Shown here one piece after another: positions 54,474 to 54,882 of a DNA stretch of 64,000 nucleotides. Source of the DNA: Candidatus Poribacteria bacterium (GTDB lineage: Bacteria > Poribacteria > WGA-4E > WGA-3G). Positions within the stretch are counted from its first letter, which is position 1. Every line of letters starts with the position of its first letter. The translations under genes were made by a program, and so were the position numbers. Location of the stretch: the NCBI GenBank assembly GCA_965197475.1, contig CBDANF010000003.1, positions 3,264,001 through 3,328,000 of the forward strand. The letters are read 5' to 3'. The notes below the pieces were generated by a model that saw only the letters and a program-made list of their open reading frames with translations, was not told the DNA's origin and searched no databases.

Positions 54474-54502
54474 TTGACAACCGCTACTGGTTTTGCTATA
54501 CT
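54474..54502 (+). promoter_or_regulatory. Near-consensus sigma70 promoter inside the right end of the DUF1670 element
   Basis: TTGACA-17 nt-TATACT with extended -10 TG. Confidence 0.75.
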
Positions 54503-54508
54503 TTAGAC

Positions 54509-54620
54509 ACGTTTATCGCTAAACGCATCATTTCTCAAAGAGGATGCTCGCGATCCCAACGCAACCCACTCATCAACGATCGCTGGGAAGCCAATAAACA
54601 TCAGCCTTCCAGCTATCCTA
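54509..54620 (+). ncRNA. Candidate structured non-coding RNA of the DUF1670 element
   Basis: Four back-to-back stems (CGTTTA/TAAACG, GCATC/GATGC, GCGATC/GATCGC, GCTGGGAAG/CTTCCAGC) fill the space between the promoter and the right TIR. Confidence 0.5.
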
Positions 54621-54633
54621 TGGTCATTTGATA

Positions 54634-54882
54634 CTATTTCAGAATCAACATTTTGCGCGTAGCCGTGTAATCCCCAGCTTTGAGCATATAGAAATAAACA
54701 CCACTCGCCACGCGTTCACCGATTTCGTTTCTGCCATTCCAATGGATAGCACGGGCACGGCTCCGATACATACCCGCAGGCTGATGCCCTAACGTTATCT
54801 CCCGCACCACGATGCCACGCATATTGAAAATCGTCAGCGACACCTTCGCAGGTTTTGCAAGCTGATAAGGTATCCACGTTTC
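54634..54882 (-). pseudogene. Orphan C-terminal sorting domain fragment
   Basis: Begins abruptly at ETWIPYQLAKPAKV and ends RKMLILK; no PNPFNP, signal peptide or passenger domain. Confidence 0.8.

Follow-up and report, generated by a model that had tools for sequence, protein, structure and literature searches.

Outward promoters and RNAs encoded in element ends are known levers by which insertion sequences control or steer themselves. In IS10, the outward promoter pOUT, near one end, gives rise to RNA-OUT. This small non-coding RNA is rich in stem-loops and acts on behalf of the element; it is antisense to the transposase mRNA, whose 5′ end it overlaps. In IS911, IS2, and IS30, a promoter is assembled at the circle junction from halves that reside in the two ends, and it drives the transposase once these ends are joined. 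The omega RNA of the IS200/IS605 TnpB systems has its scaffold in the right end, and its transcript continues into the flank. Other elements are known for inserting into safe havens, as do Tn7 downstream of glmS, and IS1397, ISKpn1 and members of the IS110 family in repetitive extragenic palindromic (REP) sequences. Here, these systems are compared with a site-specific insertion element of about 2.0 kb found at approximately 52624-54637 of a 64,000-nt stretch of Candidatus Poribacteria DNA (contig CBDANF010000003.1, positions 3,264,001 to 3,328,000, forward strand). This whole stretch is called the window, and coordinates refer to it. In working terms, the module in the right end of the element is closest to IS10 pOUT/RNA-OUT and to the outward or junction promoters of other insertion sequences.

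In the IS110 family, according to PMC11208160, an element-encoded RNA has loops that co-vary with both target and donor, a RuvC-like/Tnp recombinase serves as the enzyme, and a promoter is reconstituted in the circular form. The same work mentions the omega RNA or reRNA of IS200/IS605 TnpB, and ssr9 of ISPpu9 is a further non-coding RNA that lends itself to comparison (PMC11208160; preprint 10.1101/2025.01.17.633520).

The element of the window contains two genes, A and B, which encode helix-turn-helix proteins of the DUF1670 family, and a promoter that lies 3′ of them on the same strand. Judged by its sequence, this promoter is genuine, of the sigma-70 type, and points outward. The role that we favor for it, with somewhat less than even confidence, is that of an element-serving promoter for a non-coding antisense or insulating transcript, which would shield A and B from host read-through and possibly tune the use of the right end, and which would not be a programmable guide or bridge RNA. 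The start of transcription, the strand of the RNA seen and its function are all inferred. The right end comprises the following features:

54407-54473, plus strand: variable spacer from the stop codon of gene B to the promoter, poorly conserved and at most about 10 nt long in short variants (loci L083-85, L114, L058, and L074).
54474-54502, plus strand: predicted outward promoter TTGACA-17-TGcTATACT, with 11 of 12 matches plus TG in the scan; its −10 hexamer is kept in 40 of 41 unique right ends.
54510-54554, plus strand: 5′ hairpin domain of the predicted transcript, made of stems 1 and 2 with an alternative AUCGC/GCGAU helix around stem 2; some two-sided changes.
54555-54577, plus strand: A/C-rich linker CCAACGCAACCCACTCATCAAC, spanned by stem 3; in alignments its left part is conserved and its right part variable.
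54578-54617, plus strand: extended stem 4, an imperfect long hairpin or dyad whose loop, AATAAACATCA, is conserved; 89% of alignment cells are paired, and it is kept in derivatives that resemble miniature inverted-repeat transposable elements (MITEs).
54622-54639, plus strand: right terminal repeat GGTCATTTGATACTATTT, invariant in 38 of 38 aligned right ends.

The promoter hexamers, TTGACA at 54474-54479 and TATACT at 54497-54502, are separated by a 17-nt spacer ending in TG-c, an arrangement that has the sequence features of sigma-70-type promoters (−35 and −10 hexamers 16-18 nt apart, TG present). It was the best of eight sites found by a promoter scan of 52000-55200. In the 64-kb window three sites reached 11/12 with TG, as compared with a mean of 0.2 (maximum 2) in 40 shuffles that preserve dinucleotides. 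Conservation was assessed on 58 right ends, taken from the B stop codon to the element end, which represent 41 distinct sequences. TATACT occurs in 40 of these, i.e., in all those of Poribacteria, and is preceded by TG-n in 39. The −35 hexamer reads TTGACA in 27 ends, TTGGCA in five and TTGATA in four, and the spacer measures 16-18 nt in all 40 promoter-bearing ends. The distance from the −10 to the element end is 136-138 nt in 35 of the 41 sequences, 141 nt in one and 104-105 nt in four. In these alignments, promoter grammar is the best-kept feature after the terminal repeat; in L074, the B stop codon falls inside the −35 hexamer. The transcribed stretch, minus its last 20 nt, is 0.51-0.87 identical to that of the window, as compared with 0.32-0.66 at four-fold sites of gene B, and it is the more conserved in all seven pairs (three more pairs were skipped because of gaps in the protein alignment), which argues that this segment is under constraint. 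A preliminary description of this DNA, made from the sequence alone, had reported TTGACA-17-TATACT with an extended −10 and had taken it for a dedicated promoter in front of a non-coding right-end stretch. Both points are borne out, the first by the scan and by its preservation in homologous ends, the second by the promoter grammar, its conservation and the constraint on the stretch. Downstream, the plus strand holds no open reading frame (ORF) of note, as had also been stated. A small ORF (AUG after GAGG, at ~54544) was considered and rejected: its length falls from 17 codons in the window to 6-10 in L064 and L070, and L109 lacks it.

The orientation of this promoter relative to host genes follows from the insertion habit of the element, for which the remaining features are needed:

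52618-52623, minus strand: displaced original lysine codon (AAR) and stop codon (TAA, TAG, or TGA) of the target gene, which belong to the left flank and not to the element; across copies they read YYAYTT, the reverse complement of AAR TRR.
52624-52643, plus strand: left terminal inverted repeat, ATAG TTTG TATCAAATGACC, which contains the 13-nt perfect repeat shared with 54622-54634 and from which point all copies are alike.
52629-52657, plus strand: putative weak inward promoter of gene A, TTGTAT-17-TATACT, with its −35 inside the repeat; picked out by eye, with 8/12 matches, under the scan threshold.
52713-53525, plus strand: gene A, encoding a DUF1670 helix-turn-helix protein of 270 aa (PF07900, E 4e-62).
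53522-54406, plus strand: gene B, encoding a DUF1670 helix-turn-helix protein of 294 aa, a paralogue of A (PF07900, E 1.2e-61).
54634-54843, minus strand: 3′ end of the target gene, encoding a type A sorting domain of the type IX secretion system (T9SS); its final AAA (Lys) codon and TAG stop are partly supplied by the element.

Genes A and B overlap (53522-53525) and are the sole two ORFs of the element. In the genome from which the window was taken, the 2-kb unit has 22 matches, 18 of which are essentially full-length at 92-100% identity, and in one further copy (L019/L022) about 230 nt are missing from the left part. When copies and flanks were aligned, the common sequence ran from ~52624 (ATAG TTTG TATCAAATGACC) to 54639 (GGTCATTTGATAC TATTT). 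Thus, the perfect 13-nt inverted repeat (52631-52643 and 54622-54634), at which the stems of the preliminary description end, is not the edge of the element. The last TT of the right repeat may be a 2-bp target duplication, in which case the element ends at 54637. The terminal 18-mer, with at most one mismatch, is present in 115 of 176 genomes of the phylum, and the reversed control in none. Related elements occur in many Candidatus Poribacteria genomes, with B proteins 73-97% identical, and more distant relatives were found in Gemmatimonadota (63% identity in B), Zixibacteria, and Fibrobacteraceae.

Insertion takes place in a single orientation, at the final lysine codon of genes with a T9SS sorting domain. 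The right flanks of the element are coding and far less alike than the elements themselves. In 109 of 130 distinct right-end junctions, the element is adjoined by an opposite-strand open frame that ends ...SG[VIL]YFY...TRKM[LV]I.., and this holds for 74 of the 90 junctions that bear the promoter. In the window, the 69-aa frame at 54637-54843 (minus strand) matches TIGR04183 with 23.5 bits against a curated cut-off of 23, as well as FlgD_ig (E 1.2e-7) and CHU_C (E 3.4e-5). Twenty paralogous gene ends were compared within the same genus: four carry the right repeat, and 16 read ...YYAYTT then C(C/A)..ATCAACAT..., with Lys and stop uninterrupted. One of these 16 empty ends, L144, may be an old scar. 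The varying YYAYTT left flank and the empty ends together place the element between the penultimate codon and the original Lys-stop. The right end, ...CTAT followed by TT, reads AA+A TAG on the coding strand and provides the host gene with a new lysine codon and a new stop. The sequences are best fitted by a 2-bp duplication (TT) and termini ATAG...CTAT; the left copy is often CTT and the right one always TTT, and a duplication of zero or one base is also compatible.

With Tn7, IS1397, and ISKpn1, the element shares a fixed orientation and a conserved target at or next to a conserved gene end, where insertion does little harm. It differs from them in that it targets an entire family of paralogues, namely T9SS sorting-domain genes at their 3′ ends, and in that it inserts inside the last codon and restores both Lys and stop. 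The host protein is thereby left unchanged in secretion-signal genes of sponge-symbiont bacteria, and this targeting habit is more surprising than the promoter or the RNA. A minority clade (L029, L030, L036, L046, L050, L101, L157, L162, and L164) is instead found inside a repeated palindrome (GAAACCGAGTTTT / AAAACTCGGTTTC), in its loop, and L028 and L037 are at other sites, with ACTCGG or CGGGTTTC in common. In the window itself, stop codons at 54843-54905 split a leucine-rich repeat gene (54902-56242, minus strand) from the sorting-domain frame (54634-54843), and this stretch resembles a decayed ‘...NYPNPFNPETWIPY’ linker. The target gene of the window may therefore be a pseudogene.

With one orientation and a target at gene ends, the promoter is always antisense into the convergent host gene. 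According to the reading that we favor, host polymerase would use it to start transcription at ~54509 and would copy some 130 nt of non-coding right end before running through the repeat into the flank. The transcript would there run into the convergent host gene from its 3′ side, as an antisense RNA to the host message, and would meet host transcription head-on. The element separates the host gene from its own terminator, and host transcription would otherwise proceed antisense through B and then A. Such read-through would be opposed by a strong convergent promoter placed within the element, ~130 nt from its end. The 5′ hairpin domain may stabilize or time the RNA, and stem 4 with the 18-nt repeat would represent the cis-acting DNA end recognized by the proteins of the element. 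If the promoter does fire back into host genes, it could affect the expression of many secreted symbiont proteins. Together with the end sequences and the target motif, it offers a handle for reconstituting this transposition system.

The likeness to IS10 RNA-OUT would lie in an element-encoded outward promoter near one end and in a stem-loop-bearing non-coding transcript that serves the element. In contrast to the IS10 arrangement, the promoter is 3′ of A and B and on their strand, and its transcript would be antisense solely to the flanking host gene. In keeping with this location, complementarity of the RNA-OUT kind to the transposase mRNA, at its 5′ end or ribosome-binding site, was not found: trans-pairing with the gene A leader (−29.8 vs. 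−31.8 ± 3.8 for shuffled sequences) and with the A-B junction (−31.6 vs. −26.6 ± 3.9) was no better than with shuffles. The possibility that the right end acts as a terminator for the interrupted host gene was also considered. It was dropped, since there is no terminator-like site in 54400-54640 on either strand and the fold of the minus strand (−38 kcal/mol) has a z of −1.70, with 13 of 200 shuffles as good.

Some relatives and derivatives of the element are devoid of all or part of the right-end module. The Gemmatimonadota element L105, 1.74 kb long, occupies the same Lys-stop position of a sorting-domain gene, and the 56 nt from its B stop codon to its end contain neither promoter nor dyad. 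Its genome also harbors two end fragments at 99-100% identity, indicating that the L105 element has moved. Similarly, the Zixibacteria relative L106 is found at the same kind of target, with a right end of ~80 nt that lacks such a promoter. Genome G023, in which no match to the DUF1670 protein B was found, contains three MITE-like elements of ~455 nt, with both ends, at the usual target:

G023:C18:25382-25836, G023:C20:38364-38820, and G023:C15:301009-301462: MITE-like derivatives (loci L203, L206, and L199).

In each of them, ~290 nt of unrelated, palindrome-rich sequence separate the left 89 nt from the right 77-112 nt. Their right part starts at position 54563 or 54528 and runs to the end, so that stem 4 and the repeat are kept, the promoter is lost in all three, and the 5′ domain is lost in two. 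The retention of stem 4 suggests that it is likely a cis-acting end sequence. A deletion derivative is also present in the genome of the window (G000:C3:94094-94561, L020/L021), in which the left ~290 nt are fused to the right ~260 nt, from 54484, with removal of the −35 of the promoter. When one right repeat per genome was considered (n = 29), seven had the promoter, and six of these seven had A and B upstream in the stretch examined. The remaining 22 (loci L158-L187) had no promoter, no A/B match (E ≤ 1e-3) and no left repeat in the ~1.5 kb upstream. They look like solo remnants, ~25-60 nt long, at the ends of sorting-domain genes, whose stop codon they now provide, and this may be why they persist.

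Part of the stretch is contained in 14 RNA-library runs, four of which, from four studies, were examined as assembled contigs. Contigs cover the right end (54474-54639) in all four runs; they extend over 54481-54639 in run X1 and over 54474-54638 in runs X6 and X8, as a contig of 165 nt in the latter two. Some contigs continue from ~54652 into other sorting-domain flanks. Contigs carry no strand, start, end, or level, and they show only that RNA libraries hold this sequence joined to host flanks. In run X8, the element ends are covered and the ORFs are not, from which little follows: the ORFs of the variant in that sample may fall below the required likeness of 92%, and contigs are interrupted where repeats begin or end.

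An outward promoter might serve a different purpose in forms of the element that bring its two ends together, such as an excised circle or a head-to-tail tandem. There, it would drive A and B by reading through the right repeat, TT, the left repeat, and gene A. Such a role, which we consider unlikely, would account for the presence of a strong outward promoter as opposed to a weak inward one (8/12 by eye, unlisted by the scan), for the fact that neither strand has a terminator-like site from the promoter to the element end, and for the loss of the promoter from MITEs, which have no genes. Locus L088 also bears on it: ~80 nt left of the element, an 18-mer like the right repeat (two mismatches) lies immediately next to the left end of a full copy, only TT coming between them. 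This is the layout expected for a tandem or a junction, and the upstream sequence holds nothing else of the right end. The likeness to the circle-junction promoters of IS911, IS2, IS30, and IS110 consists in an outward promoter in a transposon end that could express the transposase after joining. In the classical case, however, −35 and −10 are split across the ends, whereas both hexamers here lie in 54474-54502, at least 120 nt from the end, and the complete promoter is ~137 nt inside. No circle or tandem joint was found among the joints listed for the four RNA runs, a weak argument as contigs drop rare forms. Moreover, a junction promoter leaves the length and sequence constraint of the 137-nt stretch unexplained, and it presupposes a circle intermediate. 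An outward or circle-junction promoter had been put forward in the preliminary description as a simpler alternative to an RNA cofactor. It does fit the data better than the latter, although the junction form does not appear among the joints listed.

The structure of the predicted transcript was assessed on single sequences and on alignments. The minimum free energy fold of 54508-54634 has −27.8 kcal/mol (z −2.38, with two of 200 shuffles as good). The four stems of the preliminary description all exist, with 6, 5, 6, and 7 contiguous pairs from their outer ends, and the loop sequences of the last two are as quoted there, but they do not make up a four-hairpin unit, as only stems 2 and 4 are conserved. 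These two are retained in the minimum free energy fold, in which stems 1 and 3 give way to a longer-range AUCGC/GCGAU helix enclosing stem 2. Stem 1 as drawn is partly kept, with 78.8% of cells paired and a UA to GC swap in 7-8 sequences, and stem 3 is not, with 66.2% paired and its inner pairs broken in most sequences. Ribosum-scored RNAalifold on 34 full-length rows yielded a consensus of −31.9, of which the covariation term represents 21.4. It consists of a TCGCT/AGCGA helix around stem 2, an apical TTCT/AGAA helix, and a long stem 4. When this structure was applied to the 38-row alignment, 89.4% of cells were paired, as compared with 86.8 ± 0.3 after shuffling (reached in 0 of 500) and 32-48% with slid partners, and two-sided changes affected 10 pairs vs. 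6.4 ± 1.3 (reached in two of 500).

Two-sided changes concern eight pairs within helices 1-3, i.e., in the 5′ domain, a domain that is missing from the 104-nt variants. The main part of stem 4 has 11 pairs, none of them with a two-sided change, and is conserved as sequence; the apical pairs of stem 4 vary between C-G, U-G, and U-A. Single-sequence folds have z values of −1.9 to −4.5 in the group of the window and of 0 to −2.6 in the more distant group. No Rfam covariance model matched either strand of 52000-55300 at E ≤ 1. In our reading of the alignments, the stretch has two parts, a 5′ hairpin domain with some compensatory change and a 3′ dyad conserved mainly as sequence, and the comparative support for structure is modest.

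Several observations weigh against an insulating transcript driven by the outward promoter. Default RNAalifold gave no consensus for either 38 or 51 aligned right ends, with only three invariant pairs, inside the terminal repeat; the ribosum-scored run on 34 rows is the sole one to give a consensus. Further pair types did not exceed shuffles (25 vs. 23.0, reached in 65 of 500). The wobble count barely favors the plus strand, with 79 G-U vs. 50 C-A of 979 cells and 87.8% vs. 84.9% paired. With first positions of 54474 or 54481, the RNA-library contigs reach upstream of the predicted start and may thus stem from host read-in, gene B read-through, or DNA. L105 and L106 indicate that an element of this family can exist without the promoter/RNA module. 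Lastly, an antisense or insulating role alone would not explain the fixed length or the hairpins. Covariation among homologous right ends, which the preliminary description had named as a check, gives a mixed picture: two-sided changes exceed shuffles, but there is no default consensus and the pair types show no excess.

That there is no functional RNA at all seems quite improbable to us. The dyads would then be double-stranded DNA sites bound by A and B, and the promoter-like hexamers would be kept as binding sites or would form a fortuitous outward promoter. Full promoter grammar (−35, 16-18-nt spacer, TG, and −10) in 39 of 41 ends is hard to explain in this manner without RNA polymerase, and the two-sided changes of helices 1-3, the UA to GC swap in stem 1, and the RNA-library contigs over the region argue in the same direction. 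Conversely, binding of DNA by A and B would agree with the main stem of stem 4, conserved as sequence (two-sided change in 0 of 11 pairs) and retained in MITEs, with the slight strand asymmetry of wobbles, and with the default RNAalifold result. Resemblance of residues 195-243 of B to sigma region 4 and LuxR-type helix-turn-helix domains is in line with it as well, a weak point as these folds are common.

What the two proteins might do has to be judged from their family and predicted fold. PF07900 spans nearly the whole of A and B, and besides it only helix-turn-helix families were matched. Neither protein matches the IS110 transposase family at E ≤ 0.01, and TnpB/IscB nucleases are absent, both ORFs of the element being DUF1670. 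The AlphaFold model of B, built with a 78-row alignment, has a pLDDT (predicted local distance difference test) of 85.5 and is nearly all helical, and a Foldseek search with it returned nothing at E ≤ 0.001. In a fold search against representatives, B matched only pieces of winged-helix and of sigma-region-4, LuxR, or resolvase-type helix-turn-helix domains, over residues 128-192 and 195-270 (best Z 6.4). The best matches of residues 195-243 were sigma region 4 and LuxR-type domains (Z 5.5-6.4), which are common folds. No catalytic fold was recognizable in B by these searches, residues 1-125 being barely covered.

At E ≤ 0.001, the DUF1670 family counts 1017 clusters in a set of 1.8 billion representatives, and some of its proteins have two to three DUF1670 stretches in 520-950 aa. 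A loop motif, LP.RG..HD.G...THK, and residues H220 and Y228 are conserved in the family; together, the motif and the invariant H and Y might form an active site. No mention of ‘DUF1670’ or ‘PF07900’ was found in the literature searched, database source names merely read ‘DUF1670 domain-containing protein’, and the titles and abstract openings of the literature found on insertion sequences and transposases of Poribacteria describe no such element. The element family thus appears to be undescribed.

The IS110 bridge RNA, the IS1111 seek RNA, and ISPpu9 ssr9 resemble the present module in being structured non-coding RNAs encoded in a long non-coding end beside the recombinase gene, with a sigma-70 promoter of their own, and these elements also insert site-specifically in one orientation, sometimes into repeated palindromes. 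Unlike them, the element has terminal inverted repeats of 13-20 nt, DUF1670 helix-turn-helix proteins instead of a DEDD/RuvC-like and Tnp-domain recombinase (A and B match PF07900 and helix-turn-helix families only), relatives without the RNA module, and no co-variation with the target. Likewise, a right-end scaffold and run-on into the flank are reminiscent of the IS200/IS605 omega RNA, but there is neither TnpB/IscB nor subterminal hairpin ends of the HUH type.

The preliminary description had proposed that the right end encodes an RNA cofactor of the DUF1670 proteins, which in the manner of IS110/IS1111 RNAs would bind them and aid recognition of the target, the donor end, or both. Promoter and conserved, fixed-length non-coding end suit such a role, and A and B are without a recognizable catalytic fold, leaving a component unaccounted for. 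As no transposase chemistry is recognized in A and B, the idea is not dismissed outright. It nonetheless fares poorly when RNAs and targets are compared. The variable segment before stem 4 exists in at least four versions (CTCATCAACGAT, CTGAGAAACCAT, CTCATTAGGGGT, and CTCATGCGTGAT), all at sorting-domain gene ends. The loop of stem 4 is independent of the target as well: L101 has the common loop and a palindrome target, and L086 the loop of the palindrome clade and a sorting-domain end. The exact RNA of the window is found at eight sites whose first 20 flank bases are 68% identical on average (35-90% pairwise) and share only the degenerate motif ..G.AT.AACAT.TT.CG.; three other RNAs, at five sites each, have flanks 55-65% identical. 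Thus, co-variation of the bridge/seek kind was not found. Among 84 RNA-flank pairs, which involve related sequences, the longest exact run between an RNA and its own flank averaged 6.31 nt, vs. 5.96 (range 5.74-6.13) with letter-shuffled flanks, a difference too slight to carry weight. Between the loop of stem 4, ATAAACATC, and the commonest target motif, ATCAACATC (flank +5 to +13), eight of nine positions agree, which helps raise this mean; a single DNA-binding domain that reads both end and target could equally account for the resemblance. L105 and L106, which use the same type of target without the module, also speak against a cofactor, as do the MITEs without promoter and, in two of three, without 5′ domain, the latter weakly since an RNA could act in trans. 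A cofactor of this kind is, in our estimation, a very doubtful proposition.

A further scheme, to which we give hardly any credence, is that the structured right end is a scaffold and the flank read-out a guide, such that daughter copies home to flanks like those of the parent. The architecture fits, with an outward promoter, a fixed-length structured stretch reaching the edge, and transcription into the flank, and RNA contigs do cross the end into flanks. In addition, near-identical right ends occur at two repeated targets (L086 vs. L099 and L109), which an element-encoded guide could not explain. However, L105 and L106 are at the same target and have no such module, the searches with A and B revealed no nuclease or recombinase of any known RNA-guided type, and elements that are 100% identical have flanks only 55-68% identical over 20 nt. 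The B-protein tree leaves room for another explanation of the two targets, since L099 falls in a well-supported clade of elements that target palindromes and other sites outside sorting-domain genes, and L086, at a sorting-domain gene, remains unresolved outside this clade. On this placement, target choice might be set by the protein. The tree was disturbed by the long rows of L114 (frameshifted) and L105, it leaves L086, L101, and L104 unresolved, and L108 (132 aa) and L110 (empty translation) were dropped from it.

The RNA-cofactor or guide idea is therefore not supported, and a claim for a new guide RNA would probably be wrong. If the right-end RNA were after all a working part of the transposition machinery, as a protein-bound scaffold with the flank read-out or the target-like stem-4 loop helping to capture sorting-domain ends, which strikes us as a very slim prospect, the element would represent a type of RNA-assisted transposon that has no relation to IS110 or TnpB.

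A few observations concern the surroundings of the element and its copies. L014 and L015 (G000:C2:1160524-1162564 and G000:C3:845183-847206) have the same 60-nt left flank and different right flanks, one of which is not a sorting-domain gene, and this suggests recombination between copies or a duplication. A metagenome scan yielded only four loci and added little. In the window, long imperfect inverted repeats (arms of 31 and 29 nt, 86-87% complementary) surround CCCCTTGATAAGGGGG at 51653-51842, between two unannotated ORFs. Just left of the element, at 52454-52608, nested inverted repeats are built on GTAGGTGCGGTT / AACCGCACCTAC, a motif also present in another genome (L178). The bin 52500-52580 has a very high summed contig depth (529-9815) in all four RNA runs examined, and the region looks like an abundant REP-like repeat or a displaced terminator region.

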